The notes below the pieces were generated by a model that was not told the DNA's origin, ran no database searches, and worked only from the letters and a program-made list of their open reading frames with translations. This document shows, piece by piece, positions 14,291 through 61,451 of a stretch of DNA of 61,451 bases. The position numbers were made by a program, and so were the translations under genes. This DNA comes from a virus. Every line of letters starts with the position of its first letter. The stretch's first letter is position 1. The stretch lies in the IMG/VR virus record IMGVR_UViG_3300025704_000001. One strand, given 5' to 3'.

Positions 14291-14293
14291 ATC

Positions 14294-14611: not shown

Positions 14612-14627
14612 CAAATAAGAAACACAC

Positions 14628-14954
14628 ATGGACGAAATAACTTTAACTTTCCCTAAACCTATAAATGTATCTGTACAGGTAGGCGACACCGCTTACTACA
14701 CGAACGATATAAACGGTAAAGATATTAAATTAATAGGGTTGATAACGAATATCGGCGGTAGCAGTTTTACTGCTCAAATCAGTTCGTCTCAGGTGAGACC
14801 AACAACAGCTAGCTTCATATTGTTCAGTAAGACAGCAAGCGTTAACACTAGCGGTCTTAGAGGCTACTATGCTGAAATGCAGTTCAAGAATGATTCAACA
14901 GCTTATGCTGAGCTGTTCTCTGTAGGCTCGGAAATATTTATAAGTAGCAAATAA
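14628..14954 (+). CDS. Hypothetical protein (108 aa).
   Basis: ORF in the structural operon. Confidence 0.6.
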   Translation: MDEITLTFPKPINVSVQVGDTAYYTNDINGKDIKLIGLITNIGGSSFTAQISSSQVRPTTASFILFSKTASVNTSGLRGYYAEMQFKNDSTAYAELFSVGSEIFISSK

Positions 14955-14986
14955 TACGTAATAATAACACATAAAACAATATAATT

Positions 14987-15658
14987 ATGCCAATAGGAAT
15001 ATTAAGCGCCGTTCAAGGTCTTTCAGGCATTGCTGGTGGCCTCATAGGCAGCGGAGCAAGAAGAAGAGAGCAACGGGAGGCTCAGAAAGAATTTAACATA
15101 AATAAAGCCAGAATGGAAGGTGCAGATACATCTAATTTGGCTACTAATCAGGAAAACGTATACGAAGACTTAACTGTTAATACACAGCAAGCTGACTTTG
15201 TTAATCAACAGCAGCAAGCCGGTATGGCAAATACTATGGACGCTCTTCAAGGTGCAGCTGGCGGTTCAGGTATTGCAGCGTTAGCACAATCAATGTCTAA
15301 CCAACAAGCGCAAAATGCACAAAGCGCATCAGCTAGTATTGGGCAGCAAGAAGCCGGTAATCAAATGGCGGAAAGACAAATGGCCGGTCAGCTACAGTCT
15401 CAAGAACTTCAGGGAGCTTATGCTTCTAGAGCTGCTGAAAAAGACAAAACAGATACTATGCTCGGAATGTCTCAGCAAAGATTAGGTGCTGCAAACGCGG
15501 CTCAGCAACAAGCTACACAGTCTATACTGGGAGGTGTTGGTAGTATGGCAGCAGGAGTTTTACCACAAATACCAGGCTTAGCTAAAGGAGGTGACTTCTT
15601 GCAGAACATGTTCGGTATGCAACCCGCAACAACAACACAGGATTTAACGAAACCGTAA
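14987..15658 (+). CDS. Q/A/G-rich hypothetical virion protein (223 aa).
   Basis: Low-complexity Gln/Ala-rich ORF upstream of the giant protein gene. Confidence 0.6.
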   Translation: MPIGILSAVQGLSGIAGGLIGSGARRREQREAQKEFNINKARMEGADTSNLATNQENVYEDLTVNTQQADFVNQQQQAGMANTMDALQGAAGGSGIAALAQSMSNQQAQNAQSASASIGQQEAGNQMAERQMAGQLQSQELQGAYASRAAEKDKTDTMLGMSQQRLGAANAAQQQATQSILGGVGSMAAGVLPQIPGLAKGGDFLQNMFGMQPATTTQDLTKP

Positions 15659-15659
15659 T

Positions 15660-16892: not shown

Positions 16893-16904
16893 ATAAAATT
16901 AAAT

Positions 16905-22900: not shown

Positions 22901-25900
22901 TATTACGGAAGGCATGGATAAGGGTTTAGTAAGAAACAAACTGCAATCACTTATGGGCCTTAATTATGTTCGTGGAGCAGGCGTTATGACAACCAGGTAT
23001 GCGGAAATGATCCAGGAAATGAATAAAGCTGGGGTAACTTTCTATGACGCTAAAAATAATACCTTTTTAAGCCCTGCTGGAGCCCTTGGCCCGCAATTGA
23101 ATCAGGAAATGGAAAACAATCTTGCTCCTGTAAAAACAGAACAAAAGGCTATCAATAATGCTAGAAGTATTAAGTGGTCTCAATCACCTAAAAAAATAAG
23201 GGTATTTGATTTCGACGATACATTAGCTCGTACAAAAAGTAATGTGCTATACACAATGCCTGACGGAACTACTGGTAAAATTGATGCGGCTACTTTTGCT
23301 AAAGACGCGGGTAAGATGGAAGCTGAAGGTGCTCAATGGGATTTTTCTGAGTTTAGTAAAGTAATGAATGGACAAGCTGGACCTTTGCTTGAGGTTGCTA
23401 AAATTATAGCAGACAAAAGAGGAACTAAAGATGTATTTGTTTTAACAGCAAGACCTGCTGATGCTGCTGGTCCTATTCAAGAATTTCTTAGTGAGCTAGG
23501 ATTAGATATACCTTTAGAAAATATTACTGGGTTAGGCAACGGAACACCTAAAGCTAAAGCTGATTGGATTATAGATAAAGTAGCTGATGGCTACAACGAC
23601 TTTTATTTTGCTGATGATCACACAGGAAATGTTAAAGCAGTTAAAGACGCTTTAGATACTTTCGATGTTAAAGGCAAAGTTCAGTTAGCTAAAGTTAAGT
23701 TTTCACAAAGCTTAGACACTAAGTTTAATGATATGATCGAACGCCAAAAAGGTGTGGAATCGTTTAAAGAGTTTTCTAAAGCAACCGCTCAGAGAAGAGG
23801 TAAAAAAACAGGTAAGTTTAAATTCTTTATATCTCCATCAGCAGAAGATTTTAGAGGATTAACTCAATACAAATTTGCTGGTAAAGGAAAGCAAGGTGAA
23901 GCTGACCAAAAGTTTTTTGAAGAAAGTTTGATGGATCCTTATTTCCAAGGGGTTGCGGCATTAGAATCAGCAAGGCAAACAATCAAAGAAGACACGAAGG
24001 CTTTACTTAAAACCTTTAAGCCAGTTAGAAAGAAGCTAAATAAACTAATAAAAGGTGAGCAGTATACTTATGACGCTGCTGTTCGAGTTTACTTATGGAA
24101 TAAAGCTGGAGAAGAAGTGCCTGGACTTTCTAAAAGAGACAACAAGAAATTGAACGATCTTGTAGCTAATGATCCTGAATTAAGCAGCTTTGCAGATGGA
24201 TTATTAATAGTATCTAAGAAAGACGCGTGGCCAGCTCCTAGTGAATATTGGATGGCTCAGACGACCTTAAGCGACTTAAATAACCTAACTGAAAAAACAA
24301 ATAGAAAAGAATACTTAGCTGAATTCATTGAGAATGTGGATATTATATTTAGCGAAAAGAATCTAAATAAAGTAGAAGCGCTGTATGGAGAAGCTTCTAG
24401 GAAAGCTATTGAGAACTCTATATACGCAATGAAGTCCGGTAGTAATAGCCCAAACCAAAGTGGTGACGCTATAACTAGTAAATGGATGAACTGGGTTAAC
24501 AGCTCTATTGGTACAATAATGTTTTTTAACAGAAGATCTGCAGTACTGCAAACTCTTTCTGCAGCTAACTTTATAAACTGGTCTGATAACAATCCAGCTA
24601 AAGCGGCAATAGCATTTGCAAATCAGCCACAATACTGGAAAGACTTTGTAACAATATTTAACTCAGATAAATTAAAGCAACGTAGAGGTGGTTTGAAATC
24701 AGATGTTCAAGAAGCTGAAATTGCTAATGCTGCTAAGAATTCTCAGGATAAAGCTCAAGCTGTTATTTCATATATACTAAAGATAGGTTTTACACCAACG
24801 CAAATTGCGGATAGTTTTGCTATCTCGATGGGTGGGGCTACGTTGTATCGTAATAGAATCAATACCTACAAAAAGCAGGGTCTTAGTCTAAAGGAAGCGG
24901 AAACAAAAGCTTTTGAGGATTTTAGTAAATTGTCAGACGAAGCTCAGCAGTCAGGTGATCCTGCATTAGTCTCTCAACAACAGCGAAGCGTTGCGGGACG
25001 TCTTATCTTGTCGTTTCAAAACACAACGATGCAATACACTAGACTTATGAAAAAGTCTGGCCAGGACCTTATAAATGGACGTGGGGATGCAAAGACACAT
25101 ATATCTAAGATACTTTATTATGGAGCTATACAAAACTTTTTGTTTAACGCGTTGTCAAAAACAGCGTTTGCATTAATACCTGGATTCGAAGAAGAAGATG
25201 AAGAAGATGAAGATAAAAAGAATCAAGCTATAGAAAAGAAAGCTGCTGGTATATTAGACGGTATGGCTGATTCGGTTATACGAGGTACTGGAATATACGG
25301 AGCTATATTTACTACTTTAAAGAATTCGATATCTACATGGAAAAGAGAAGACGAGAAAGGTTTTACAGGAGATCAAACCAAGACAATTATTGAACTAGCA
25401 AACCTAGCACCGGCAATAGGTTCTAAACTTAGAAAAGTTTATTCAAGCATTCAGACACGGCAATTTGATAGGGATATTATAGAGAAGCATCCTTGGGATG
25501 TTACAATAAATGGTAAGTTTAATCCATCATCAACGTATACTATAATAGCTAACTTATCTTCTGCTGCTTTTAATGTACCACTTGATAGAGCTTTAGCGGA
25601 AGCTAGGAGTGTAGGGGAAATGTTGGACGACAGAAATAGCAAGTTTCAAAGAATAGCATTAGCTTTAGGTTGGAGAACATGGAACGTTGGCGCCAAGAAT
25701 GAAGAGTTTGATCTTATAAAGCTTGAAGGTAAAGCTAAGAGAAAAATAGAGGGTAAGGAAAAAGCTAAAAGAACTAGAGCTGCTAAAAAAGAAAAAGAGA
25801 AACAACGAGTAGCTAATCTATCTCCAGCAGAAGCTCTTAAAGAAAGAAGAGACAAGGCAGCAGAAAAAAAGAGAAAAGCTTTAGCTAAAAGACGAGAAAA

Positions 25901-25934
25901 ATTAAGATCAAGATTAACAAAAAATAAAAAATAA
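16905..25934 (+). CDS. Giant multidomain (polyvalent-type) virion protein, 3009 aa. It carries an HExxH metallopeptidase motif and an embedded HAD-family hydrolase domain.
   Basis: 9-kb uninterrupted ORF. HELLH is at nt 19725-19739. HAD motifs are DFDDT (about nt 23208), VLTARP, K and FADDH (about 23190-23660). There is an acidic EEEDEEDED run near 25190 and a K/R-rich C-terminus. Confidence 0.85.
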   Translation: MANPDPIYKINNKEIPASTIKLAAEQNGMTFEEYVTRRGAVLVPGKKTDSTTADPNVESENTGSTSAEDFSVSRLGDAEVQLDEFSEPVTIKAWEEETNKYIDENPDLTADELSEWINRPGGPTESQYSFQEEKEIFEANKKEPKLDNPNYSPNDFIISLYEDPGFNKNKPALSAYDNELEFLKNKQKDYPIMSTESADIQSQINQLEYNKQNELEDNRTTASRARNLITQKINEADAYWNDAQAKLQAGEITPEEFAAVERNYDNKRANIFQNSLEKDRYDEQTLLLNEVSTAKTKDTYSSFGSSDLGENKKEQIEFDQKVEDEIINKLYSDNKLKGKTLDGNLNLEGKEMLITEAKSKVLNQSYEEYLNEYDKAQEIIFAADEASSVTPEAATAAQAILYNAADKLQTTSTKLAFNIGEQVFDNNFQMTEDFIKWRDRHIDGGFVGGTADFIGTLVQGGQKLIGESIVGSAIWLNRLAFTGMGTFEEDEYSRLDMVSDMFSNYNSFNYLGVSPKGGSLSEDGISFRSGSKTIANMLPFTIGVALAARKGDMKGLKNAYSLLKGMGASASTINKIKMGGFAFRATVNDNYMEGKQMGLDDSQALAYSSMASTATAVVQGIMPDVNFFKTNIGKSMLNTVVENLKKATTKEARKAVGKQFVNSLLGEIGEEEAELLLQDIAKITVGLSNETKFTDFDTQFETIGGTILLAGGTSTVMAPTQFSNFKNKIYNQYRTQGADIIKTLQESKKVVETKLKRARTQQSKDAAQRQLDEINSAIDYGGDIIKAINVAPDVMNDEQIDLLIQKNQLLERKAKADKRYTKGIDAEIEAIDAKIEASQVKQQSSIIEERTEAGTKKIADALGITFEKGNKAKISELIAQENAAREERNKGKSKANKEDLINVNEALAQNGFIIQNADGTQTIAVNEDVAGTNKAVTTAQHELLHGVLLKTITDNPGAIVQMGNALRSEIDKMLPNDISFNNVYIQGRLEAYKDSPSSVKAEELLTIFSEGLTQGFISFEENAFTKIGDFIRQGLQRAGMNVTFNSGRDVFNFIKDFNKSVIEGKGLGKGLTKAAKEGAKVGKKLGSTSAFLYNANFEANIQNEYNSSKLELPKKALKIAMAYRSRVQELINKSSNDVFGTAEKANAVEYALIGKNNPNSIYNTVLNYDNNSGITLDDTIGKTVSGIGETAVTEKYSKEGPKSVLNEINNLVPPSVKTQADYFSPKVFNPIYNATLPNGVISNYIKSKSPSKEVGEKAIAGIQDRLVNYDPAAERKKAGNKEPITFGEFIFANTNFIKLDAKKALFKESEAAKKTTDLDTKEAQSKIAEDDAVKKDRPKFRKLIDSSVLPGFTIKEIGGKLTKVLKVLKSKLDAKVSINKSVSPLIAEIKKAMGKQADIDLKKAMGGKADAQLQKWLLKNKKAILENMTTTWLMGAIPKAIQKSVGGTYKVDSNGTRVKDSYGDFVFVPNFTSDWQGKTIDREKTSTNKLGKTAGGDIVRRLPNIATALSDADFVGSVLQDVSIDADGKMTSGAPIRGKKESMAKAIAEEISLEIFNKELQDENSEISKAFENNQVARGVVLVDNFVEDVARQSERGTVKFSKAAIRLGVASDIIDGINTEEFKNRFFTHANDPKNKLPLYTSLIEQFQRYSIEDLKVSDLRTIAAELSKDYTFKPFGEIGIERIQETEGVLKTLKYILENTKEGLTRGNSYATAQQIYQSVDTKLDEKTIQGLNEGRAAVKKVVEVLVDQGFTGNEIKNIFVAVYSPSGLGGFKGKLNKDGKTRATPDSDILVESDLGLPNYKKDTETGMPTTQIENRGSFMVSVSDFEQNFLRGIEMGDKVSTRTDAYTKNFWSKDNSVYNKLDNEGKKEYLQELQEGKKEFQASLIKFIEAVNKADISPAAQRTLIRLPFAAMDGLGKITSAPRWMPAKLDGTLLSLKDLVKLGFGRKDGKIDKGVFEHTKPANRMAIAAYIYSMTGKKADLDILIEELSDFDTAFITEGMDKGLVRNKLQSLMGLNYVRGAGVMTTRYAEMIQEMNKAGVTFYDAKNNTFLSPAGALGPQLNQEMENNLAPVKTEQKAINNARSIKWSQSPKKIRVFDFDDTLARTKSNVLYTMPDGTTGKIDAATFAKDAGKMEAEGAQWDFSEFSKVMNGQAGPLLEVAKIIADKRGTKDVFVLTARPADAAGPIQEFLSELGLDIPLENITGLGNGTPKAKADWIIDKVADGYNDFYFADDHTGNVKAVKDALDTFDVKGKVQLAKVKFSQSLDTKFNDMIERQKGVESFKEFSKATAQRRGKKTGKFKFFISPSAEDFRGLTQYKFAGKGKQGEADQKFFEESLMDPYFQGVAALESARQTIKEDTKALLKTFKPVRKKLNKLIKGEQYTYDAAVRVYLWNKAGEEVPGLSKRDNKKLNDLVANDPELSSFADGLLIVSKKDAWPAPSEYWMAQTTLSDLNNLTEKTNRKEYLAEFIENVDIIFSEKNLNKVEALYGEASRKAIENSIYAMKSGSNSPNQSGDAITSKWMNWVNSSIGTIMFFNRRSAVLQTLSAANFINWSDNNPAKAAIAFANQPQYWKDFVTIFNSDKLKQRRGGLKSDVQEAEIANAAKNSQDKAQAVISYILKIGFTPTQIADSFAISMGGATLYRNRINTYKKQGLSLKEAETKAFEDFSKLSDEAQQSGDPALVSQQQRSVAGRLILSFQNTTMQYTRLMKKSGQDLINGRGDAKTHISKILYYGAIQNFLFNALSKTAFALIPGFEEEDEEDEDKKNQAIEKKAAGILDGMADSVIRGTGIYGAIFTTLKNSISTWKREDEKGFTGDQTKTIIELANLAPAIGSKLRKVYSSIQTRQFDRDIIEKHPWDVTINGKFNPSSTYTIIANLSSAAFNVPLDRALAEARSVGEMLDDRNSKFQRIALALGWRTWNVGAKNEEFDLIKLEGKAKRKIEGKEKAKRTRAAKKEKEKQRVANLSPAEALKERRDKAAEKKRKALAKRREKLRSRLTKNKK

Positions 25935-26107
25935 TGTCAACACCAATCACAACAAAAATTAGACAAGCTAGAGTAGGCTTAACAGCTAAGGAAGGTATGA
26001 AAATATCAGTAAGTCCAGATGGAACAGGAGCTGCGGTTCCTGATTATAATCCAGATCCAGCAACCCCAGGCTGTGGTTGCGGAGGCAACTGCAAATGCAA
26101 TAAATAA
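25934..26107 (+). CDS. Small protein (57 aa) with a Cys-rich C-terminus, PGCGCGGNCKCNK.
   Basis: The ATG overlaps the giant-gene stop (TAATG). Below the track cutoff; read by hand. Confidence 0.45.
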   Translation: MSTPITTKIRQARVGLTAKEGMKISVSPDGTGAAVPDYNPDPATPGCGCGGNCKCNK

Positions 26108-26281
26108 ATGATCATGGCTGATAACTTAAGAATATATATGATAAACGGATCTGTAATGGGGTTAGCTACTTTTAGTCAAATAGAAGATTGGTTAAAATTA
26201 ATATTACTTTTAGTGACTATAGGTTATACAATATCTAAGTGGACTAAAATAAAGGAAGAAAGCGATGACAAAACTAACTAA
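26108..26281 (+). CDS. Holin-like small membrane protein (57 aa).
   Basis: Read by hand. It has hydrophobic segments VMGLATF and LKLILLLVTIGYTI and a charged C-terminus. It overlaps the endolysin start by 17 nt. Confidence 0.45.
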   Translation: MIMADNLRIYMINGSVMGLATFSQIEDWLKLILLLVTIGYTISKWTKIKEESDDKTN

Positions 26282-26654
26282 TAACTTTTATTTATGGGAA
26301 TTTGAATGCAAGTGTGGTTGTACTATGCCTGAATTTGTTAAAAATAATATAATTGAACTAGCTGAAAACCTACAGGTGTTGAGAGATGAGGTTGGTAAAC
26401 TAGATCTTACTAACGCATATAGATGTAAAGCTCATAACGATGATGTAGGCGGGGCTACTAATTCTCAACATATAACAGGTAAAGCTGCTGACGTAAAGTC
26501 TGAAACAAAAAGTCCTAGCGAAATTGCAGAAACAGTTAACGACTTAATGAAAAGTGAAAGATTTAAAATGGGTGGCGTAGGCGAATACAATACATTTACA
26601 CATATAGATATTCGAGGGTTTAAAGCGAGATGGAGTAAAACGACTAAAAAGTAA
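26265..26654 (+). CDS. Endolysin, peptidase M15 (VanY / D-Ala-D-Ala carboxypeptidase-like).
   Basis: Zn-ligand motifs SQHITGKAADV and THIDIR in a 129-aa protein. Confidence 0.8.
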   Translation: MTKLTNNFYLWEFECKCGCTMPEFVKNNIIELAENLQVLRDEVGKLDLTNAYRCKAHNDDVGGATNSQHITGKAADVKSETKSPSEIAETVNDLMKSERFKMGGVGEYNTFTHIDIRGFKARWSKTTKK

Positions 26655-26657
26655 AAT

Positions 26658-27230
26658 ATGAGAACAAAAGGAATAGGTCCACAAGGATTAGGAATTAAAG
26701 GCAACAATGGATATCATATAGGATCTCCCGCGAAACAAGCAAAAAAATACAGCGAGCTAGCTAATCGAATGGAAAATTTTAATCAACGTAAAGATACTCT
26801 TGTTACAAGTAGGGGTACTAATCGGAATGTACTTAGAGCCGAGAACAGCTTTAAAGCCTCGGTTGGTCATAAAAAAGGGTTGATGGATATGAGAATAAAA
26901 GATTCAAAGACTCTCCTAAATAATGATGGGACGTTGCAATACATTACGCAACATGAAAAGACACCTACAAAATCTCCTGCTAAGCAAACAACTCGCTCTG
27001 AGAGATTATACGCAAGGTCTGAAAAGAATGCAGCTAAGGGTAGAAAAGCTGTAGATGAAGGAAGAGATAGAAGAGCGACTCGCTTACTTAAAAGAGCAGC
27101 TAAGCAAGAAGACAGAGCTATTAGACTAGAAGAGAGAGCTATGCAAGAAAACAAGGCAATACTATTAGAGATAGCTAAAAAAGATAAAGAGAAGAAAGTA
27201 GGAAAGAAGGGAGTAAAAAAACAAATATAA
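26658..27230 (+). CDS. Lys/Arg-rich protein (190 aa) of the SP[AT]K[QK] family.
   Basis: KGIGPQGLG...IGSPAKQ and TKSPAKQ. The N-terminus is paralogous to the 54919..55248 product. Confidence 0.65.
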   Translation: MRTKGIGPQGLGIKGNNGYHIGSPAKQAKKYSELANRMENFNQRKDTLVTSRGTNRNVLRAENSFKASVGHKKGLMDMRIKDSKTLLNNDGTLQYITQHEKTPTKSPAKQTTRSERLYARSEKNAAKGRKAVDEGRDRRATRLLKRAAKQEDRAIRLEERAMQENKAILLEIAKKDKEKKVGKKGVKKQI

Positions 27231-46739: not shown

Positions 46740-46985
46740 ATGGCACAGAAACTTTCAGCAACAGCAAGAAGAGACAAAGCAGCTAGGGATTTGGCGTTTG
46801 CTAAGACACCTGCTAGAAAAGCAAAAAAAGCGCACGCGCAGAGAGAAGCAAGAGCTAATCCATCTGCAGCTAAAGGCAAGGATTATGATCACAAAGATCA
46901 GAGATGGGAAACTCCTAGTAGGAACCGAAGTAATGACGGTGAAGGAACAAAGAAAGAAAGTGGTAAGAAGTACCGCACAGACTAA
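46740..46985 (+). CDS. Basic hypothetical protein (81 aa).
   Basis: First rightward ORF after the divergent control region. The alternative-frame ORF 46798..47007 is not excluded. Confidence 0.45.
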   Translation: MAQKLSATARRDKAARDLAFAKTPARKAKKAHAQREARANPSAAKGKDYDHKDQRWETPSRNRSNDGEGTKKESGKKYRTD

Positions 46986-52229: not shown

Positions 52230-53795
52230 ATGGAATTCAATTTACCAAGTCAGATCGTAAAAGATCTAAGTTTCGGAAACGAAGGTAGAAATAAAATAAT
52301 GTCCGGCGTTGATAAATTAGCAAGCGCAGTAAAGTCCACTTTAGGGGCTTCTGGAAAATGCGTAATATACGAAGACGCTATGGGCCGACCGGTTATAACA
52401 AAAGACGGAGTAACCGTTGCAGAAAGCGTAGTCTTAATGGATCCGGTCGAAAATATAGGTGCAACCCTTATAAAGGAAGCAGCGAGTAATACCGTTAGAG
52501 AAGCAGGTGATGGTACTACAACAGCTACTGTAATAGCTCACTCTCTATTAACTAATATAAACGAATACAAAGGTGAAGAACAAATTAGAGATATTAAAAG
52601 AAGCGTTGACGAATGTCTTGAAGAAGTTACTAATTATCTTGATAACACCAGGATTGAAGTTGAGGGTGATATGCTACAGCAAGTTGCTTACATTAGCTGT
52701 AACAATGACGCTGAGCTTGGAGACAAAATTGGCGAAGCATTCGAAAGAGTTGGAAAGACTGGAGTCGTTTTAATGGAGGATTCTGACACAAATGAAACGC
52801 ATGTTGAGTTTGTTGAAGGAACTCAGTTTGAATCAGGTATAAAGTCATCACACTTATTAACAGACAAAGATAAAGGAGTTGCTGTACTGGAAGAACCGTT
52901 GGTCTTAATAGTTAGTTCACCTGTGCCTAATATACGTAGAATCCAAAATATATTGGAACATGTGGTTAAAACCAAACGTAGTTTGTTAATAATCGCTCCG
53001 CTAGAGCAACAGCCTTTTGCGACGTTATTAGCTAATAAAGTAAAGGGTAATATAAAGGTCAACATTGTAGACCCTCCAGGGTTTGGACCAACTAAAGCTG
53101 ATACACTAGAAGACTTAGCTATCCTAACAGGCGCCACGGTCGTAGATGAAGAGCTTGGTGACGACTTAGACCTTTTAGATATTAATGTACTAGGCGAAGT
53201 TTTAAAGTCCGTTACAGACGCTAAAAACACGATATTGCAAATTAAAGATACCACCTTAGATTTAACAGAACGAATAGAAGAAGTTAAAACTAAGATTGAT
53301 AAAGAGACCAACGCTTATATCAAGATGAAACTAGAGAAGAGATTGTCTATGTTAACCGGTAAGGTTGGTGTTATTTATGTAGGTGCTGATTCAGCAGTTG
53401 AACTAAAAGAAAAGAAAGATCGAGTAGATGATGCTCTCCACGCTACGAAAGCAGCCTTAATGGAAGGAATAGTAGCGGGTGGCGGTATTGCATTATTAAA
53501 TGCGTCAAACAAGATCAAGCCTAAGAATGACGGGTATAAGTTATTATTAGATTCTATTAAAGCTCCTTTCTACACTATATTAGATAATGCTGGTATTGTT
53601 GAAATTAAAAAGCAAACAATTAAGAATAGAGGTATTGACGTTAAAACAGGTAAAGAAGTTAATATGATTAAAGCTGGTATTATAGATCCAGTATTAGTTA
53701 CAAAGTCAGCGTTAAAGAATGCGGTTAGTGTGGTAAAGACTATTATATCCGCAGATTGTATAATCTCAAATGTAAGATCCCTTGAACGCAGTTAA
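52230..53795 (+). CDS. groEL: GroEL-family chaperonin (Cpn60), 521 aa.
   Basis: ITKDGVTVA, the ATP-site motif EAGDGTTTATV, and EGIVAGGG. The size is near full length. Confidence 0.85.
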   Translation: MEFNLPSQIVKDLSFGNEGRNKIMSGVDKLASAVKSTLGASGKCVIYEDAMGRPVITKDGVTVAESVVLMDPVENIGATLIKEAASNTVREAGDGTTTATVIAHSLLTNINEYKGEEQIRDIKRSVDECLEEVTNYLDNTRIEVEGDMLQQVAYISCNNDAELGDKIGEAFERVGKTGVVLMEDSDTNETHVEFVEGTQFESGIKSSHLLTDKDKGVAVLEEPLVLIVSSPVPNIRRIQNILEHVVKTKRSLLIIAPLEQQPFATLLANKVKGNIKVNIVDPPGFGPTKADTLEDLAILTGATVVDEELGDDLDLLDINVLGEVLKSVTDAKNTILQIKDTTLDLTERIEEVKTKIDKETNAYIKMKLEKRLSMLTGKVGVIYVGADSAVELKEKKDRVDDALHATKAALMEGIVAGGGIALLNASNKIKPKNDGYKLLLDSIKAPFYTILDNAGIVEIKKQTIKNRGIDVKTGKEVNMIKAGIIDPVLVTKSALKNAVSVVKTIISADCIISNVRSLERS

Positions 53796-54039
53796 TCACT
53801 TTATTATAATCGACAAAATCAAGGAAGCTCCGAAGACAGTAGGAGGACTTGAAATAACACAAAATCAAAATCACGACGTTAGGTACTTAAAGGGTAACAT
53901 AATTAGTGTTGGAGATAAGATAGATTTTCTCAAAGAAGGCGATGTTGTTAGATATGACAAACACGCAGGGCACGGAATAGAATGGAATGATAAATTGTAT
54001 TTTGTAATTACAATAGGTGATGTAGTTTTAGTAGAATGA
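53782..54039 (+). CDS. groES: GroES/Cpn10-like co-chaperonin candidate (about 85 aa; non-ATG start, position uncertain).
   Basis: ...IIIDKIKEAPKTVGGLEI......KGNIISVGD...LKEGDVVRYDKHAG...VITIGDVVLV follows the Cpn10 pattern. It has a TTG start that overlaps the GroEL end. Confidence 0.55.
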   Translation: MNAVNHFIIIDKIKEAPKTVGGLEITQNQNHDVRYLKGNIISVGDKIDFLKEGDVVRYDKHAGHGIEWNDKLYFVITIGDVVLVE

Positions 54040-54476
54040 GACTAGGCTCAAGTGATTTAAGAGAAATGAATTTACTTAAGTATTACAGGCTTGTTAGAAA
54101 ATGGGCCTGTAAAACTTACAACCTTAAAGACGCTGATATTGAATTATTAATATATTTGGATTGCAAAAAGCAATTTACACGTAATGATTTCATAGACGGT
54201 GTTTATACATACTCTTGGGATAAAGCAAGATGGGAGAGATTAAGGCGAGAGGGTTGGATCGATGTCTGGAGAAAAAGAAATAGAACTACTATGAAGACTA
54301 ATATATATAGTACTTCACACAAATGTAAAAGTTTAATAAACAGAATTTACAGAATACTACTAGGGGAAGAGGATTTACCAACGTCAGCTAGAAGTACGTT
54401 TTACAAGAATAAAACATATACGGATAAAGTTTACAACAAAGCTATTGATGATATGATAAAAGACAAAGAAAGATAA
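54036..54476 (+). CDS. Basic hypothetical protein (146 aa).
   Basis: ORF whose ATG overlaps the previous stop. Confidence 0.6.
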   Translation: MRLGSSDLREMNLLKYYRLVRKWACKTYNLKDADIELLIYLDCKKQFTRNDFIDGVYTYSWDKARWERLRREGWIDVWRKRNRTTMKTNIYSTSHKCKSLINRIYRILLGEEDLPTSARSTFYKNKTYTDKVYNKAIDDMIKDKER

Positions 54477-54478
54477 TT

Positions 54479-54916
54479 ATGGCATTTAAAATGAACCCTA
54501 AATCACCAACTTTAAAATCAGTTGGACAGTACGCAGCTCCTCGAGGCATACAGCAAGCCGCAGTATCACCTGCTAAACAAAGTACGCAAGGAGACTACGA
54601 AAAAAGTTTAAAACAAAAGCATATTGTAAAATCAAAAACCTCAGCGCAAGGTGATAACGATAATGTTAAAAGAAGCCGTAGAAGCGAGGTTACAAATATA
54701 GAAAGTAAATCAAATAGAAGAGTACAACAAGTAGCTGGAAATGATAGTAATGACAAAAAAGGCTATAAAGCTACATTGACGACTGTAAAAGATCCAAACA
54801 CGGGAGGTAGACTTGTTGTTGGTCCTGAAGGAGGCTATCATGAAATGGGGAGTGAAGTAGCTCAAAAAGAAGTTAAGAACTTTCAAAAGAATTATCTAAA
54901 AACAAAAAATAAATAA
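54479..54916 (+). CDS. Lys-rich SP[AT]K[QK]-family protein (145 aa).
   Basis: MAFKMNPKSPTLK... and VSPAKQ. Confidence 0.65.
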   Translation: MAFKMNPKSPTLKSVGQYAAPRGIQQAAVSPAKQSTQGDYEKSLKQKHIVKSKTSAQGDNDNVKRSRRSEVTNIESKSNRRVQQVAGNDSNDKKGYKATLTTVKDPNTGGRLVVGPEGGYHEMGSEVAQKEVKNFQKNYLKTKNK

Positions 54917-54918
54917 CA

Positions 54919-55248
54919 ATGGCATACTCAGGATTTAAAGGAATTGGACCAAACGGTTTAGGTGGAAGTAAAAAATCAGTAATATCACCAACTAAGCAAA
55001 TGGGTACTGACGCAGGCGAAACGGCAGCATTCGAAGAAAGCAAACGATTAGAGTTAGCGGCAGACGAGAAAATGGAGCGAGCTAAGGGTAACAAAAAGAA
55101 ACAAGCTGAAATAATAGCTAAGACTAATAAAAAAATGGACAAAAAAGTTCCTGCCGCTAAGAAAAAAGCAGAAAAAGAAGGATATACAGCGTTTGGTGAA
55201 AGCAAAAAAATACCCGCAAAAAAAGCTCCTGGTTTCAAAAAACAATAA
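54919..55248 (+). CDS. Lys-rich SP[AT]K[QK]-family protein (109 aa).
   Basis: FKGIGPNGLGGSKKSVISPTKQ is paralogous to the N-terminus of 26658..27230. Confidence 0.65.
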   Translation: MAYSGFKGIGPNGLGGSKKSVISPTKQMGTDAGETAAFEESKRLELAADEKMERAKGNKKKQAEIIAKTNKKMDKKVPAAKKKAEKEGYTAFGESKKIPAKKAPGFKKQ

Positions 55249-55258
55249 AAGCAAAACA

Positions 55259-55612
55259 ATGGCATTCAAACTAAAATCACACGGAGAAGTATTCGGTATT
55301 CACGAGAAGACCTCTAAGTTTGGTACTCCTGTCATTATAAAAGATGACCTTGAAAGTGGGGTTGAGGCTGAAGCCAATCGTGATGGCACTATTTTTGTTA
55401 ACTCTAAACTGTCTGACAAAAAAATAGAAAAAGCTGTTGCTCACGAAAAAGTTCATTTAGATCAAATGGCTTCAGGTAGATTGCAATACTCTGAAGACTC
55501 TGTAACTTGGAAAAGGGATACAAGATCACCTGCTAGAGTTTACAAGAGAGCTACTATGAATGAAGGGCATCCTGATTTCGAATGGGAGAATGAAGCATAT
55601 AAACAATCATAA
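55259..55612 (+). CDS. Mini zinc-metallopeptidase-like protein (117 aa) with an HExxH motif.
   Basis: Starts MAFKLK at 55259; the track start at 55193 overlaps the previous gene. Motif AVAHEKVHLDQM, preceded by EANRDGTIFVN. Confidence 0.6.
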   Translation: MAFKLKSHGEVFGIHEKTSKFGTPVIIKDDLESGVEAEANRDGTIFVNSKLSDKKIEKAVAHEKVHLDQMASGRLQYSEDSVTWKRDTRSPARVYKRATMNEGHPDFEWENEAYKQS

Positions 55613-55614
55613 TT

Positions 55615-56082
55615 ATGGCAATTACATTTAGGGGTCAAGCCTCAAAACTTAAAAAGTCTGCAGCTAGTAATAACCGCAATGGATTTCAAGAAGTATCAGC
55701 CCCTGGGCCGAGAAGAGGAACTGGAGGTTTCGAAAATAGCCCTGCTAAAAAAAGTTGTTCACCTATAACTCAGAGATCAAAGTCTCCTTTAAAAATGAAT
55801 GAAGCGCTAGTTGCTGGAGCTGGGCAAACAGGTAAAAGATTTGTTGATGCCGGTGCTGAAGTAGGTAGAGCTTTCGAACAAAAGCAAGAACCTGCTGCTG
55901 CAAATCTTGGACACCAAGACCTTACGAGCAAAAATAAAAGCGCAAATAATAAAGAGGGTAATCAAAATAAACGCAAAGAAGTGAAAGGCGTTGATGCTGG
56001 ACAGTTTGCTAAAGGGGTCATTATCCCATCAACTTCAGAAATGGATCTCACGCTAGCTCCAACAACACTTACAAAAAACTAA
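55615..56082 (+). CDS. SP[AT]K-family protein (155 aa).
   Basis: NSPAKKSCSPITQRSKSPLK, followed by NEALVAGAGQTGKRFVDAGAEVG, which is paralogous to the 15660 N-terminus. Confidence 0.65.
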   Translation: MAITFRGQASKLKKSAASNNRNGFQEVSAPGPRRGTGGFENSPAKKSCSPITQRSKSPLKMNEALVAGAGQTGKRFVDAGAEVGRAFEQKQEPAAANLGHQDLTSKNKSANNKEGNQNKRKEVKGVDAGQFAKGVIIPSTSEMDLTLAPTTLTKN

Positions 56083-56085
56083 ACC

Positions 56086-57042
56086 ATGTCAAAAAACACA
56101 CCAATTACAGCAAGAGTAAGCACAGGCTTATTTAACAAAAAGAAAGGAGTAACAGAACCTTTACTAAACGTAGGGAAAGCCGGCGTACACGGCAATAATC
56201 AAACTAGAGATATTCCATCGCCGAGTAAAATAAAGGGATATGCAATGAAAAGCTCACCGTTCAAACAGAAAATGGTTGACGGCAAGCCTGTTGAAGCCAA
56301 GATTAAAAGTGCTGGTCAGAGAATAATAGAGGAAACTCCAGGAAAACCAGGTTCAGATAATTACGATAAAGCAGTCGCTGCTGAAGGTACTAAAATTGTT
56401 GACCCCGCGTTAATTACCCCAGAGATGACAGCAAGAGCTAATAAGAAAAGAGCCGACGCAAAAGCAGCCGACGTACTAGCAGCTAAACCTGTCAAAAAAG
56501 AAAAAATTATTCCGGGTAAAGATATTGATCTTAAAGATTTTGAGGTTGAAGGCAAAAGAGGTATGGTTGAAAGCTGGGAAGCTGGATCTCAAGGTAGACG
56601 AATGAAAAAACTGAGTGATGATATTTCAGACTCACAGAGAAATGTTGATAGATACAAAAGTCGACTTAAAGGATACGCTAAGCAAGATAAAAAAGGCAAC
56701 TGGGTTAAAACAGATCCAAAGGTGTCTGACAGAAAGTTTAATAGAAACCTTAGAAAATTTCAAGAATCATCAAGAAACGTAAAAGGGTCTCAAGATCAGT
56801 ATGATGTTTATTCCAAAGGAGTTTCACGAGGAGCTAGCGGATATCGAGGGGGTACATTTAATGTAACAGAACAAGCTACGAAGAAATCACTAGGAAACGT
56901 AAATCAGCAAATAGAATTTGAAAAGAAGCAGTTAAAGCCTGAAAAGGCTGTAACAAAGACAAATCCAAACCCAATCGCAAATAAAAAGAGTAACAATTTC
57001 TTTAAAAAGACTACTCCTTTAAAAATGAAATACTTTAAATAA
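56086..57042 (+). CDS. Lys-rich protein (318 aa) of the same module.
   Basis: IPSPSKIK and SSPFKQK; highly basic. Confidence 0.65.
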   Translation: MSKNTPITARVSTGLFNKKKGVTEPLLNVGKAGVHGNNQTRDIPSPSKIKGYAMKSSPFKQKMVDGKPVEAKIKSAGQRIIEETPGKPGSDNYDKAVAAEGTKIVDPALITPEMTARANKKRADAKAADVLAAKPVKKEKIIPGKDIDLKDFEVEGKRGMVESWEAGSQGRRMKKLSDDISDSQRNVDRYKSRLKGYAKQDKKGNWVKTDPKVSDRKFNRNLRKFQESSRNVKGSQDQYDVYSKGVSRGASGYRGGTFNVTEQATKKSLGNVNQQIEFEKKQLKPEKAVTKTNPNPIANKKSNNFFKKTTPLKMKYFK

Positions 57043-57425
57043 TGGCGTACAAACAGGAACCTAAATCCCCAATACTAAAAAGATGTTGGGAAGGGTACTC
57101 TCCGGTGCCTGGCAAAAAGAAGGAGGAAAAAGGAAGTTGCGCAAAGTCACCTGCTAAAAAGACAGCAGCTTGGACACGTAAGGAAGGTAAATCAGAAACT
57201 GGTGGCTTGAATCAAAAAGGTGTTGATGCTTATAAAAGAGACAACCCTGGATCTAAACTACAAACAGCAGTTACAACAAAACCATCTAAACTTAAAAAAG
57301 GTAGTAAAGCCGCTAAGCGTAGAAAATCGTTTTGCGCAAGAATGAGCGGGATGCCAGGGCCTATGAAAAAACCTAACGGAGAGCCAACAAGAAAGAAGTT
57401 AGCTTTAGACAAATGGAATTGCTAA
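57042..57425 (+). CDS. Lys-rich SP[AT]K-family protein (127 aa).
   Basis: MAYKQEPKSPILK, KSPAKK, and the C-terminal block KRRKSFCARMSGM...KLALDKWNC. Confidence 0.65.
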   Translation: MAYKQEPKSPILKRCWEGYSPVPGKKKEEKGSCAKSPAKKTAAWTRKEGKSETGGLNQKGVDAYKRDNPGSKLQTAVTTKPSKLKKGSKAAKRRKSFCARMSGMPGPMKKPNGEPTRKKLALDKWNC

Positions 57426-57574
57426 TGGCATCAAAAGGGTTAGGAGATACAATAGAAAAAATTACAAAAGCAACAGGAATTAAAACAATAGTAGATAAAC
57501 TTCCTGGCGATTGCGGGTGTAACAAAAGAAAAGAAGCGTTAAACAAAGCGTTTCCGTATAAACAAAAACAGTAA
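57425..57574 (+). CDS. Small protein (49 aa) with a GDCGCNK motif.
   Basis: Hand-read MASKGLGDTIEKITKATGIKTIVDKLPGDCGCNKRKEALNKAFPYKQKQ. The ATG overlaps the previous stop (TAATG). Confidence 0.45.
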   Translation: MASKGLGDTIEKITKATGIKTIVDKLPGDCGCNKRKEALNKAFPYKQKQ

Positions 57575-58661: not shown

Positions 58662-58881
58662 GGAGTTAATAAAAGTAGCTAAAGAGCCTATTGTAGATTC
58701 AGACGACGACCTAACTGCGGATAAACTTAAAAATGCCGCAGCCACAAAAAAACTAGCTATATTTGACGCTTTTGAAATACTAACACGTATAGAGGAGGAA
58801 GAAAGAGTGTTGGAGAACAAACCTAAGAAAGAGCTTGAAACAATAGAGTTCAAAGGCTTTGCTGAAAACAGATCTAAGTAA
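58606..58881 (+). CDS. Small terminase subunit candidate (91 aa). The call is positional only.
   Basis: Charged helical ORF directly upstream of the large terminase, overlapping it at TAATG. Confidence 0.35.
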   Translation: MNTKETKRNIILAGQKAVEELIKVAKEPIVDSDDDLTADKLKNAAATKKLAIFDAFEILTRIEEEERVLENKPKKELETIEFKGFAENRSK

Positions 58882-61091
58882 TGTACGAGCAGAATCTATA
58901 TAAGGTAGTAACCCCTGTAAAACTTACAACTATTTCTAGACTTAATAAAAGTAAGAAGTGGGGGTATGGATACAACAAAGAGCACAACATTGTAGTAATA
59001 AGCAAAACTGGTCAAATAGGTGAAATATACGAAATACAAAACCTTAGGATAGCTTTGCCGAAGTCACCAGGGAAGTTAGATAAGACAACAGACAGATGGA
59101 CTGTCGAGGAGTACCCTAGAGAATTAAATGCTATAAAGAGTATATTTGATTGGAGGGATTATCCTGAAGATTTTAAAACTAAATGGGGACCATATATAGA
59201 TGAGCAATTTAATAAAAGAGAAAACGGACACTGGTTTAATAATAAGGGCGTGGATACTTACATTACTGGTACTCACTTTATGTACCTGCAGTGGTCCAAG
59301 ATTGATGTTGGGAAGCCAGAATTTAGGGAATCAAACAGATTATTCTACATATTCTGGGAAGCTTGTAAAGCAGACAGAAGAAGTTATGGTATGTGCTATC
59401 TCAAGAACAGACGTTCAGGGTTTTCATTCATGGCATCTGGGGAGACCGTTAATATGGCAACAATATCGTCCGACGCGCGTTTTGGGATTTTGTCCAAATC
59501 TGGCGCCGATGCAAAGAAAATGTTCACAGATAAGGTTGTACCCATTTCTGTTAACCTGCCGTTCTTCTTTAAACCCGTACAAGACGGTATGGACAGACCG
59601 AAGACAGAACTTGCGTACCGAGTACCTGCGTCAAAATTCACAAGGAGGCGACTCGATTCGAATAAGGCCACAGAGATCATCGCAGGACTTGACACAACGA
59701 TTGACTGGAAAAACACCGGTGATAACGCGTACGATGGGGAGAAACTCAAACTTCTCGTCCATGATGAATCGGGTAAATGGGAAAGGCCGAACAACATCCT
59801 CAACAACTGGAGGGTTACGAAAACAACATTAAGGCTAGGGGCAAGAGTTATTGGAAAGTGTATGATGGGATCAACGTCAAACGCTTTAGATAAAGGTGGT
59901 GAGAATTTTAAAAAGCTATATGCAACATCAGACGTTACAAAAAGAAACGCTAACGGACAAACTCGCTCAGGATTATATTCTTTGTTCATTCCTATGGAAT
60001 GGAATTACGAAGGATTCATTGATGCTTATGGGATGCCTGTATTCAATACCCCACCAGAAGGCTGTGAGGACTCACATGGCGACCCTATTGAAGTCGGAGT
60101 CATAGAACATTGGAATAATGAGGCTGAAGGATTAAAAGGCGACCAGGACGCTCTAAACGAATATTACAGACAGTTCCCTAGAACAGAGGAACACGCTTTT
60201 AGAGATGAAACTAAAAACAGTATATTTAACTTAGCAAAAATATACGAACAAATAGATTACAACGAAGACTTAGCTAACAGTAATGTAGTTACAAGAGGTA
60301 GTTTTCAATGGCAAAACGGTATAAAAGATTCTAAAGTTATATTTAGTCCAAATCCACAAGGTAGGTTCTTAATAACTTGGACACCTGCTCACGATATACA
60401 GAACAGGCAAATAATTAAGAATGGAGCTAGATACCCTGGTAACGAACACATGGGTGCTTTGGGTTGTGATAGTTATGATATATCAGGAACAACAGACGGG
60501 AGAGGATCTAAGGGAGCATTGCATGGGTTAACTAAATTTAGTATGGAAGACGCACCTCCAAGTACTTTCTTTTTAGAATATATAGCAAGGCCTCAAACAG
60601 CTGAGATATTTTTCGAAGATGTGCTAATGGCTTGTGTATTTTACGGAATGCCTTTATTATGTGAAAACAACAAACCTAGGCTTTTGTATTATTTTAAGAG
60701 AAGAGGCTACAGAGGATACTCAATGAACCGACCGGATAAACTTTGGAATAAGTTGTCGGTAACAGAAAAAGAAATAGGTGGAATACCGAATTCAAGTGAA
60801 GATATAAAACAAGCGCACGCATCTGCTATAGAAATGTATATAGATAGTTACGTAGGTTTAAAGTCAGATGGAAATTACGGTACAATGTATTTCACAGAGA
60901 CATTGAATGACTGGTCTAAATTTGATATAAATAATAGAACAAAGTTTGATGCGGCAATAAGCTCCGGCTTAGCGATAATGGCATGCAACAAAGATCTATA
61001 CAGGCCGAGTGCTCCAATACAAAAAAGAACAATGAAAGTTAAATTTGCAAAATATAGGCAAGACGGCAATTTATCCGAGATAATAAAATAA
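58881..61091 (+). CDS. terL: Terminase large subunit (736 aa).
   Basis: Walker-A-like YLKNRRSGFS, Walker B LKLLVHDESGKW, and a C-terminal nuclease region with GALGCDSYD. The portal gene follows immediately. Confidence 0.75.
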   Translation: MYEQNLYKVVTPVKLTTISRLNKSKKWGYGYNKEHNIVVISKTGQIGEIYEIQNLRIALPKSPGKLDKTTDRWTVEEYPRELNAIKSIFDWRDYPEDFKTKWGPYIDEQFNKRENGHWFNNKGVDTYITGTHFMYLQWSKIDVGKPEFRESNRLFYIFWEACKADRRSYGMCYLKNRRSGFSFMASGETVNMATISSDARFGILSKSGADAKKMFTDKVVPISVNLPFFFKPVQDGMDRPKTELAYRVPASKFTRRRLDSNKATEIIAGLDTTIDWKNTGDNAYDGEKLKLLVHDESGKWERPNNILNNWRVTKTTLRLGARVIGKCMMGSTSNALDKGGENFKKLYATSDVTKRNANGQTRSGLYSLFIPMEWNYEGFIDAYGMPVFNTPPEGCEDSHGDPIEVGVIEHWNNEAEGLKGDQDALNEYYRQFPRTEEHAFRDETKNSIFNLAKIYEQIDYNEDLANSNVVTRGSFQWQNGIKDSKVIFSPNPQGRFLITWTPAHDIQNRQIIKNGARYPGNEHMGALGCDSYDISGTTDGRGSKGALHGLTKFSMEDAPPSTFFLEYIARPQTAEIFFEDVLMACVFYGMPLLCENNKPRLLYYFKRRGYRGYSMNRPDKLWNKLSVTEKEIGGIPNSSEDIKQAHASAIEMYIDSYVGLKSDGNYGTMYFTETLNDWSKFDINNRTKFDAAISSGLAIMACNKDLYRPSAPIQKRTMKVKFAKYRQDGNLSEIIK

Positions 61092-61095: not shown

Positions 61096-61451
61096 ATGGC
61101 TAGAGGCGTAACAAATAGTTTTTTTCCAAGTCAAGTTGTAAGTGATCAAGAGAAGATGTCTTTTGATTATGGGTTACAAGTTGGTAGAGCAATTGCTAAT
61201 GAATGGTTTGATGGTAATTCCGGAATAACTAGATTTAAAAGCAATCAAAATACATTCAATGCTTTAAGATTGTATGCAAGAGGAGAGCAACCTATACAAA
61301 AGTATAAAGACGAAATGTCTATAAACGGAGATTTATCTTACCTAAACTTAGACTGGAAACCCGTACCTATTTTATCTAAATTTGTAGATATTGTAGTTAA
61401 TGGTATATCCGATAGAAGTTTTGATATCACAGCTTACTCTCAAGACCCTTA
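61096..61451 (+). CDS. Portal protein, N-terminal part. It continues in frame into bases 128..2204 through the end overlap.
   Basis: ATG at 61096, 5 nt after the terL stop. The frame is open to the window end and in phase with the ORF at the window start. Confidence 0.7.
   Translation, partial: MARGVTNSFFPSQVVSDQEKMSFDYGLQVGRAIANEWFDGNSGITRFKSNQNTFNALRLYARGEQPIQKYKDEMSINGDLSYLNLDWKPVPILSKFVDIVVNGISDRSFDITAYSQDP
61325..61451. repeat. End overlap, second copy of bases 1-127.
   Basis: Identical over 127 nt. Confidence 0.95.

Follow-up and report, generated by a model that had tools for sequence, protein, structure and literature searches.

Why should a phage carry, between its chaperonin and packaging genes, a run of small basic proteins that have little in common beyond a short N-terminal peptide and a recurrent Ser-Pro-x-Lys (SPxK) motif? 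The question is raised by the viral record IMGVR_UViG_3300025704_000001, a stretch of 61,451 nucleotides (nt) analysed here at its full length (the window), in which the module occupies positions 54479-57574 and has an outlying member behind the endolysin gene. A sequence-only reading of this DNA had described proteins with paralogous N-termini and a motif that recalls the S/TPKK repeats of histones, and had offered two roles for them, packaged internal proteins or substrates of maturation cleavage at SPxK. Our analysis retains the non-random nature of the motif and of the shared N-termini, and abandons both paralogy of the whole proteins and the likeness to S/TPKK. The module proteins are mosaics in which a leader peptide is followed by interchangeable cargo cassettes and, as judged from comparison with relatives, SPxK is the junction between these cassettes. 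We hold this descriptive part (leaders, cassettes and junction motif) with high confidence. Their function is a more tentative matter: at a probability of roughly 0.4, we suggest that these are late accessory proteins whose leaders would direct them into the capsid and whose exposed SPxK linkers would be cut by a zincin encoded in their midst.

Every open reading frame (ORF) named in the sequence-only reading lies where it had been placed, and the six motif proteins (A, B, D, E, F and H) are indeed highly basic, with isoelectric points (pI) of 9.97-10.52, Lys plus Arg contents of 16-27% and net charges of +12 to +35. In pairwise BLAST comparisons, A resembles F over 21 amino acids (aa; 48% identity) and B resembles H over 24 aa (50% identity), with nothing significant beyond. 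Kinship is thus limited to N-terminal stretches of 21-24 residues and does not make paralogues of the proteins; A and F, like B and H, are otherwise unrelated proteins with a common short N-terminal peptide, as is the case for the internal proteins of phage T4. Three types of leader can be distinguished, L1 (MAFKM.PKSP.LK), L2 ((F)KGIGPxGLG..NNGY.IG) and L3 (M..PIT.RV...), and they are distributed over the following proteins.

Protein A, 54479..54916, + strand: 145 aa, pI 10.1, fast-evolving; L1 leader MAFKMNPKSPTLK at 54479-54517; VSPAKQ, with SPAK at 54566-54577.
Protein B, 54919..55248, + strand: 109 aa, 23% Lys; L2b leader MAYSGFKGIGPNGLGG...ISPTKQ at 54919-54999, with SPTK at 54985-54996.
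Protein C, 55259..55612, + strand: 117 aa, pI 6.5, predicted SprT/IrrE-like mini zincin.
Protein D, 55615..56082, + strand: 155 aa, starting with MAITFRGQASKLKK; NSPAKK (SPAK at 55738-55749) and KSPLKM (SPLK at 55783-55794).
Protein E, 56086..57042, + strand: 318 aa, net charge +35; L3-type leader MSKNTPITARV...EPLLNVG; PSPSKI (SPSK at 56218-56229) and SSPFKQ (SPFK at 56254-56265); conserved ...KYFK C-terminus.
Protein F, 57042..57425, + strand: 127 aa; L1 leader MAYKQEPKSPILK at 57042-57080; CWEGY..GSC hairpin cassette at 57084-57143 (residues 15-34); KSPAKK linker, with SPAK at 57147-57158; DUF6321 at 57186-57416.
Protein H, 26658..27230, + strand: 190 aa, pI 10.5, the ORF after the endolysin; L2 leader MRTKGIGPQGLGIKGNNGYHIG at 26658-26723; SPAK at 26724-26735; a cassette; KSPAKQ, with SPAK at 26973-26984; a coiled-coil cassette.
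57-aa ORF, 25934..26107, + strand: L3-type leader MSTPITTKIRQARVG...ISVSPDGTGAAVP; Cys-rich tail PGCGCGGNCKCNK.

The leaders recur far beyond the window. A 27-position profile of the L2 (KGIGPQGLG-type) leader finds 56 clusters at E ≤ 1e-3 and 22 at E ≤ 1e-10 among 1.84 billion representatives (best E = 1.7e-14), and the leader heads diverse cargos; in about three quarters of the 56 clusters it begins within the first two residues. Very short complete ORFs consist of a leader and an 18-25-aa tail. The B-type leader MAY[NS]GFKGIGP..LG..SPxK stands on different cargos in L008 and L011, with a close variant, MSYKGYKGIGPKKYG, in L015, and the A orthologue in L008 keeps its leader on a different body. 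The L2 leader may also resemble collagenase sites (GPQG|L), encapsulin cargo-loading peptides and the GroES mobile loop.

The motif itself is real. VSPAKQ, ISPTKQ, NSPAKK, KSPLK, SSPFKQ, KSPAKK, GSPAKQ and KSPAKQ are all present as previously listed, to which PSPSKI in E is added. The six motif proteins (1,044 aa) thus hold nine SPxK, against a mean of 0.64 and a maximum of six in 20,000 within-protein shuffles, none of which reaches nine; the main genes in the rest of the genome contain three in-frame copies, two in a 3,009-aa protein and one in the terminase. Each window protein carries one or two copies, 12-83 residues apart, at cassette junctions. In 75 IMG/VR loci, the density of SPxK is 9.2-9.6 per 1,000 aa in ORFs bearing an L2 or L3 leader and 0.21 per 1,000 aa in the 200,474 aa of other ORFs, about 45-fold lower, and the motif is kept in orthologues with only 27-49% overall identity. 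The consensus of 85 non-redundant instances is S-P-A(71%)-K-Q(42%)/K(34%), where the Lys at position 4 is fixed by construction of the motif search; at position 3, Ala (71%) is followed by Leu and Val (7% each), and Lys and Arg are outside the six commonest residues. The likeness to the histone S/TPKK repeats is therefore superficial: position 3 is rarely basic instead of supplying the first of two basic residues after Ser/Thr-Pro, position 5 is Gln in 42%, and the copies are neither in tandem nor clustered in terminal tails.

At the nucleotide level, 84 distinct SPxK instances from L017-L091 show that the motif draws on Ser and Pro codons much as the genome as a whole does (p = 0.24 and 0.15, respectively), with both Ser codon families in use. 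The motif is conserved mainly at the amino-acid level. The motif Lys is encoded by AAG in 40% of cases compared with 25% in the background. A DNA-level recombination signal was considered as the source of the motif and set aside; the Ser and Pro codon usage counts against it, and a bias in the Ala codon, to which we return, leaves a small doubt.

What SPxK separates becomes clear from the relatives, which we assembled as metagenomic homologues of F, H and C together with 75 IMG/VR contigs. All of them come from a single family of phages with genomes of ~60 kb and the gene order of the window, and their proteins are cassette mosaics: a leader, then SP[A/L/F/T]K[Q/K], then one to several cargos mostly parted by SPxK. 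The cargo cassettes include DUF6321, DUF5872, KDACY..PSAYASG, CW.GY..PG.KKG..GSC (present in F), HKMY...EEH..L..GYGH, GLW.NIRA.KGSGKKPT, the coiled-coil ARSEKNA.KGRKAVDEGRD..A.RLLKRAA.QE.R (present in H) and Cys-rich tails. They form chains of two to five cassettes in varying order, the combinatorial arrangement of domains that characterizes polyvalent proteins, in which a single polypeptide holds two to fifteen independent domains. Leaders are swapped between cargos: DUF6321 follows an L1 leader and a CW hairpin in the window, and an L2 leader and an HKMY cassette in a relative with a 78%-identical terminase.

The exchange points coincide with the motif. BLAST alignments among 68 non-redundant relatives have 1,567 internal end points, of which 26% are no more than 3 aa away from an SPxK, compared with 7.3% for random positions; starts accumulate on the motif Ser, and ends on the Lys or the next residue. 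Orthologues of D contain the optional cassettes KIGPQGLGVKGNNGYSVG (an L2 peptide) and KKNFYGG.AYF.DGYGGDL, mostly inserted between SPxK copies; in relatives of F (P0011-P0016), a hydrophobic cassette is inserted between SPAK and SP[T/A]KK. The 57-aa ORF at 25934-26107 belongs to the same cassette system, yet has no SPxK in this genome: in relatives P0131-P0144 its leader precedes SPAKQ and the coiled-coil cassette that H also carries, and in an ORF of L014 (6268-6408) SPAKK and GGGCGCSGKCKC come after a related leader of L3 type. The Cys-rich tails behind these L3 leaders (PGCGCGGNCKCNK and GGGCGCSGKCKC) may be metal-binding mini-peptides, and many DUF6321 relatives have a similar CGC..C.C stretch between an L2 leader and SPLKK.

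Protein F shows how such a mosaic might be built in three dimensions. Its C-terminal 77 residues correspond to DUF6321 (Pfam E 1.3e-20, 74.3 bits vs a cut-off of 28.5), with residues 49-125 covering positions 1-72 of the 72-position profile. In the AlphaFold2 (AF2) model, the predicted local distance difference test score (pLDDT) is below 50 at the leader (residues 1-12) and at the SPAK segment (residues 38-41), residues 19-35 of the CW cassette form a hairpin, and the C-terminal DUF6321 domain is helical; SPAK is thus modelled as a low-confidence linker between hairpin and DUF6321. A Foldseek search of the PDB with the F/DUF6321 model (pLDDT 68) gave no match (best E 6.5). The composition of the module proteins is biased towards disorder. 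In a charge-hydropathy plot all of them fall on the "disordered" side; since this includes the confidently folded C, the result carries little weight.

Protein C is the constant companion of these mosaics. Its MAFKLK start and its HEKVH motif (residues 62-66) are as first noted, and it has 247 homologues, the best 120 of which are 57-100% identical and mostly 114-130 aa long. They share the L1-like start MAFKM.PKS and the invariant motifs EANxDGTIF, HEKxHLxQ and WExEAY, together with WK..T.SPA[R/K]VY.R; HEKxH is invariant in 39 aligned homologues, and the SPAR at residues 90-93 of C is SPAK in many of them. The AF2 model (pLDDT 88) has strands at 25-48 and then a helix at 53-71, with the HExxH helix following an edge β-strand, and it places SPA[RK] in a hairpin turn. 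Foldseek relates this model to SprT-like proteins in BFVD (E 9.3e-5 to 1.9e-4, template modelling (TM) score 0.53-0.61) and to the cores of IrrE/PprI and ImmA-type regulators in the PDB (probability 0.87-1.0, with E of only 0.06-0.5 over ~50 residues). It also matches, weakly, the "large polyvalent protein-associated" zincin domains in BFVD (E 0.04-0.2). In sequence, C stays below the threshold for Pfam DUF6782 and weakly matches the metalloprotease phrog_87, and a PDB sequence search found no match. By the fold of its model, C is a SprT/IrrE-like mini zincin and a predicted peptidase. The co-occurrence of this gene with the module, which the sequence-only reading had wished to see examined, is complete: C is present in nine of the nine relatives for which the region is available. 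It is a separate neighbouring gene in the window, and is fused through SPLK to a PSAYASG cassette in L008, P0220 and P0222. Searches of PHROG, Pfam and NCBIfam detected no gp21-type or other canonical prohead protease in the module or among the structural genes.

The module evolves at two speeds. Compared with the relative that has a 97%-identical terminase, the ratio of nonsynonymous to synonymous substitution rates (dN/dS) is 0.47 for A, 0.28 for D, 0.24 for E and 0.14 for B, and 0.01-0.06 for GroEL, C, F, the large terminase (TerL) and two neighbouring proteins, p146 and G53; C, at 0.03, is strongly conserved. By these values, which stay below 1 for all ORFs, A, B, D and E are real genes under relaxed or diversifying constraint. 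At 78-86% terminase identity, the orthologues of A, D and E are 27-72% identical or replaced (those of E are 27-30% identical or not detectable by BLAST), and C and DUF6321 persist. Leader genes cluster in three hot spots: after the lysis cassette, where H stands and where relatives have one to six of them, at the start of the rightward operon, and in the interval between p146 and the terminase. In the window, 54479-57425 and 25934-27230 are such sites of insertion.

A link to the virion is provided by DUF6321. The domain is widespread, with at least 8,000 metagenomic relatives (all significant, 7,999 at E ≤ 1e-3) and matches in 537 GenBank phage records. Its tblastn matches in cyanophages S-SM2, Syn33, P-HM2 and S-ShM2 fall inside genes of the T4-GC119 group of cyanomyoviruses defined by Sullivan et al. 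2010 (PMC3037559), and T4-GC119 appears in Table S8 of that study as a structural protein, purified virions of S-SM1 having yielded 13 peptide counts for it. The cyanomyovirus T4-GC119 proteins chain PSAYASG, CW.GY and DUF6321, with DUF6321 last, and have neither SPxK nor leaders. In pelagiphage HTVC131P (L004 5742-6231) and T7-like cyanophage S-TIP37 (L092 3489-3859), the interval between scaffold and capsid genes holds DUF6321 as one of two or three minute, strongly basic genes, a conserved group that also includes a ~50-aa GLYANIHAKR...GAPTAKNFKRAAKTAK protein; both sequences occur as L2-led cargo cassettes in the family of the window. Pelagiphage HTVC024P has its DUF6321 gene in a block of small genes after the endolysin, as is the case for H here. 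Other marine phages encode the cargo modules leaderless, beside scaffold, capsid or terminase genes. These observations lend indirect support to the idea of packaged internal proteins, since the domain of F is found in cyanophage virions; by extension, the proteins of the window may also be virion-borne. The idea of a maturation cleavage site is supported, equally indirectly, by the position of SPxK at junctions, the low-confidence linker in F and the invariant zincin.

Based on this evidence, we propose the following mechanism, to which the rough probability of 0.4 given above applies. The leaders would act as recognition or loading peptides that bring the proteins, and the zincin with them, into the assembling capsid. 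The basic cargo would share the head with the DNA, and its delivery into the host may follow. The exposed linker between cassettes would be SPxK, the hinge of the chain, which is probably cut by the zincin. Cutting at SPxK would explain why cassettes can be inserted, lost or swapped at the motif without harm, and the mechanism as a whole would explain why unrelated bodies have leaders in common and why the zincin begins much like a leader, as well as the basicity of the proteins and the head-gene neighbourhoods of their cargos in other phages. In a stronger form, the module would be a distinct leader-linker-cargo system with three families of loading peptides, whose chains are cut at SP[A/L/F]K[Q/K] by a leader-bearing zincin and whose pieces are packed and injected with the DNA. 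A fixed linker that is also the cleavage site would then leave the chains freely recombinable, a polyprotein-like toolkit of effectors; we regard this stronger form as doubtful.

Several points weigh against the proposed mechanism. We infer the virion location, the cleavage and the DNA binding of the proteins of this phage family, and the virion evidence is limited to DUF6321, in a distant myovirus protein without SPxK. Phages commonly have SprT/IrrE-type zincins whose roles lie outside the capsid, we know of no zincin with a specificity for SPxK, and Pro at P1 or two residues before the scissile bond is unusual for this class. One of the hot spots opens the rightward operon, a place that would be no less fitting for non-structural proteins. 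The late regions examined in Cellulophaga phage phi38:1, Flavobacterium phage elemoE and MW202828 (an uncultured freshwater podovirus, the closest GenBank record) contain no leader or SPxK proteins, which makes the module accessory and dispensable for assembly; its absence from the cultured relatives also means that their proteomics-based annotations are not transferable. Lastly, the motif Ala is encoded by GCT in 80% of cases compared with a background of 44%, a bias that leaves room for some nucleotide-level relatedness among the motif copies.

The same data may be read differently. The proteins could be DNA condensers in the manner of histone H1, in which SPxK turns and Lys-rich flanks bind the minor groove or the phosphates without any proteolysis, the target being the AT-rich phage DNA (36% G+C) or the host nucleoid and the leaders serving as extra DNA- or protein-binding elements. 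Net charges of +12 to +35 and pI values of about 10 or higher in six proteins would suit this role, as would the modelled hairpin turn that holds SPA[RK] in C, which is consistent with a turn-forming motif. SPxK also fits the wider S/T-P-x-K pattern of H1 tails. In T4, moreover, only the lysines of the internal proteins touch packaged DNA (PMC3012670). Set against this, the canonical S/TPKK features are wanting (Ala at position 3 in 71%, Gln at position 5 in 42%, single motifs 10-100 aa apart), and DNA binding alone leaves unexplained both the breakpoints and insertions at the motif and the constant presence of a conserved zincin. We consider this account improbable; it and our main reading are not mutually exclusive. 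Alternatively, the proteins, made late or early-late, could stay out of the virion and act in host take-over or anti-defence, with the zincin directed at host targets. SPxK would then be a flexible linker that is tolerated and persists because breaks at other sites yield recombinants that are lost, or because illegitimate recombination exploits microhomology in its coding sequence. IrrE/ImmA-type zincins usually cleave regulators, the three hot spots at operon ends and starts are typical "moron" positions, the module is missing from the cultured relatives and from the closest GenBank record checked, dN/dS is elevated (0.14-0.47) and the motif codons are biased (Ala to GCT, Lys towards AAG). 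A neutral linker, however, would not hold four or five fixed residues across unalignable proteins or produce a 45-fold enrichment, the motif Ser and Pro codons are at background with both Ser families used, and the cargo cassettes stand in head-gene clusters of unrelated marine phages, one of them being virion-borne. We therefore judge a purely non-virion role to be unlikely.

Two further explanations carry much less weight. The layout of leader, boundary and variable core, the short ORFs made of a leader and an 18-25-aa tail, the Cys-rich tails in ORF 25934-26107 and in L014, and the peptidase gene in the cluster are reminiscent of precursors of ribosomally synthesized and post-translationally modified peptides (RiPPs). 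The leader would be recognized by an enzyme, SPxK would mark the leader/core and core/core boundaries as in multi-core cyanobactins, and Cys-rich tails such as CGCGGNCKC would be modified cores freed by the zincin. Neither the module nor its surroundings revealed a RiPP-modifying enzyme family in searches of Pfam, NCBIfam and PHROGs, an export system is absent, and most cargos are basic proteins of 60-300 aa or folded domains and not short cores, which makes this origin very improbable. That the module might be a compositional artefact or consist of non-genes is suggested by the richness of the proteins in K, S, P and A, in which short motifs are easily over-read. This notion is refuted, to near certainty, by the shuffles (0 of 20,000 reach the observed count), by dN/dS below 1 in all ORFs, by retention of the motif in orthologues at 27-49% identity and by a leader profile that finds relatives down to E 1.7e-14 in 1.84 billion proteins.

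The capsid-loading mechanism has parallels in known systems, in its working and not in homology, as the module has no sequence homology to T4 internal proteins or to polyvalent proteins. In T4, the internal proteins IPI, IPII, IPIII and Alt carry a targeting peptide that loads them into the prohead core and is removed by the prohead protease (PMC3012670). Like these proteins and the hypervariable internal-protein loci of T-even phages, the module consists of unrelated, basic, non-essential and fast-diversifying proteins that are encoded together and share only a short N-terminal peptide. The systems differ in that PHROG, Pfam and NCBIfam searches revealed here no relative in sequence of the targeting peptide or internal proteins of T4 and no gp21-type protease, the sole peptidase candidate of the module being the SprT/IrrE-like zincin; in that there are three leader families instead of one; and in the SPxK junctions and multi-cassette chains, which have no counterpart in T4. 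The packaged location is established for T4, and is predicted from the genes for the proteins of the window.

Polyvalent proteins are most often partnered by a zincin-like peptidase, for which Iyer et al. 2017 (PMC5512222) predict a role in processing the chain, either inside the head or once it has been injected. The module resembles them in its combinatorial chains, its occurrence in a portal-terminase phage and the occasional fusion of the zincin to a cargo. Unlike in polyvalent proteins, the chains are small (45-370 aa) and made of tiny basic cassettes, the zincin is usually a separate 117-aa protein, and neither a recognizable enzymatic domain nor one with a known conflict function (anti-restriction, methylase, ADP-ribosyltransferase, primase and the like) was found in the six motif proteins or in those relatives that were scanned; the description of polyvalent proteins, in turn, contains neither the junction motif nor the N-terminal leaders found here. 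With the S/TPKK proteins (histone H1, sea-urchin sperm H2B), the module shares a Ser-Pro-x-Lys turn in Lys-rich, probably unstructured proteins, and DNA association would be a further common trait; it differs from them by Ala, Leu or Phe instead of Lys or Arg at position 3, a frequent Gln at position 5 and isolated copies at module junctions. Adenovirus offers another comparison, as its basic core precursors pVII and pX/Mu are cut at a short consensus by a packaged viral protease. This is an analogy only, since lineage, protease class (cysteine in adenovirus) and cleavage consensus are unrelated and cleavage is predicted here. The cyanomyovirus T4-GC119 proteins share an actual domain with F, and the cyanophage and pelagiphage versions lack leaders and SPxK.

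The sequence-only reading had not recognized a described family. This holds in part: DUF6321, DUF5872 and SprT-like zincins were already known, and for the arrangement of leader, junction motif and cassettes we found no description in the libraries or literature searched. A tblastn search of 50,697 GenBank phage records with A and H gave no match even at E 1-10, a blastn search with the module region matched only the DUF6321 segment, in cyanophages and pelagiphages, and Pfam, PHROGs and NCBIfam yielded no significant match to A, B, D, E or H. The top-ranked literature held no relevant account of DUF6321 or of SPAKQ, SPLKQ, SPLKK or SPAKK in phages. The cassette family is so far known from one marine phage family. 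Outside T4 and the giant phages, the selection of proteins that accompany the DNA is poorly understood. If the leaders load capsids and SPxK is a processing site, leader plus SPAKQ plus cargo would be a compact rule for protein packaging and trimming in a podovirus, a first functional handle on widespread marine-phage modules (DUF6321, DUF5872, PSAYASG) and a natural case of cassette shuffling at a fixed peptide junction. Such a rule is short enough for synthetic fusions and could be put to use in loading phage heads with proteins of other origin. Should the proteins be no more than DNA-neutralizing filler, they would still illustrate clear, motif-delimited modular evolution, of narrower interest.

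The source of the window is a marine podovirus. The first and last 127 nt (1-127 and 61325-61451) are identical, hence the window is a complete genome, a circular assembly of about 61.3 kb that has been opened within the portal gene (61096-61451 runs on at 1-2204). Its large terminase shares 62% identity with the enzyme of an uncultured freshwater podovirus and, in a distant relation, 31-43% with those of phages of Flavobacterium, Cellulophaga and Tenacibaculum; given the hosts of these relatives, the host is likely one of the marine Flavobacteriia. Genes for virion proteins, including portal and major capsid protein, span 1-16,900 and are followed by the 3,009-aa protein, the lysis cassette (a 57-aa membrane protein and an M15 endolysin), H and a leftward replication block. 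A rightward late block starts at ~46,700, passes through tail-fibre genes and continues with GroEL/GroES, a 146-aa protein, the module and the terminase; its genes are tightly packed, and no terminator-like site was found on the + strand between 46000 and 61451, an arrangement in keeping with virion association of the module proteins. The module therefore does lie between chaperonin and packaging genes, as first described. The features around it are as follows.

Scaffold candidate, 2237-3478.
Major capsid protein, 3485-4930.
3,009-aa protein, 16905-25934, + strand: one HELLH at residue 941; very basic C-terminal tail.
81-aa basic protein MAQKLSATARRDKAARDLAFAKTPARKAKK..., 46740-46985, + strand: start of the rightward late operon.
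GroEL (521 aa) and GroES-like protein (85 aa), 52230-54039, + strand: directly upstream of the module; family-wide.
146-aa basic protein p146, 54036-54476, + strand: phrog_17028; dN/dS 0.06, strongly conserved; upstream boundary of the module.
53-aa protein G53, 57413-57574, + strand: KGLGD..ATGIK and a CGC motif; dN/dS 0.02, strongly conserved.
Large terminase, 58881-61091.

Many relatives have L2-leader/SPxK and DUF6321 genes right after the gene for the 81-aa protein, a site that is empty in this genome. Flavobacterium elemo phages also encode GroEL/GroES, and do so without SPxK proteins. Both p146 and G53 accompany the variable module; the G53 gene comes after the DUF6321 gene wherever the latter occurs. 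The 3,009-aa protein, of which relatives have a 2,933-aa version, contains a polynucleotide-kinase/HAD-like segment at residues 2091-2279 (PHROG 415, E 1.6e-6) and is a candidate virion-borne "polyvalent" protein with a zincin of its own. The 1,673-aa virion structural protein encoded at 7540-12561 on the + strand gives a sub-threshold Pfam match to the C-terminal domain of the crAss-virus muzzle protein (E 7.8e-5, 23.5 bits vs a cut-off of 27), which hints at a crAss-like tail architecture.

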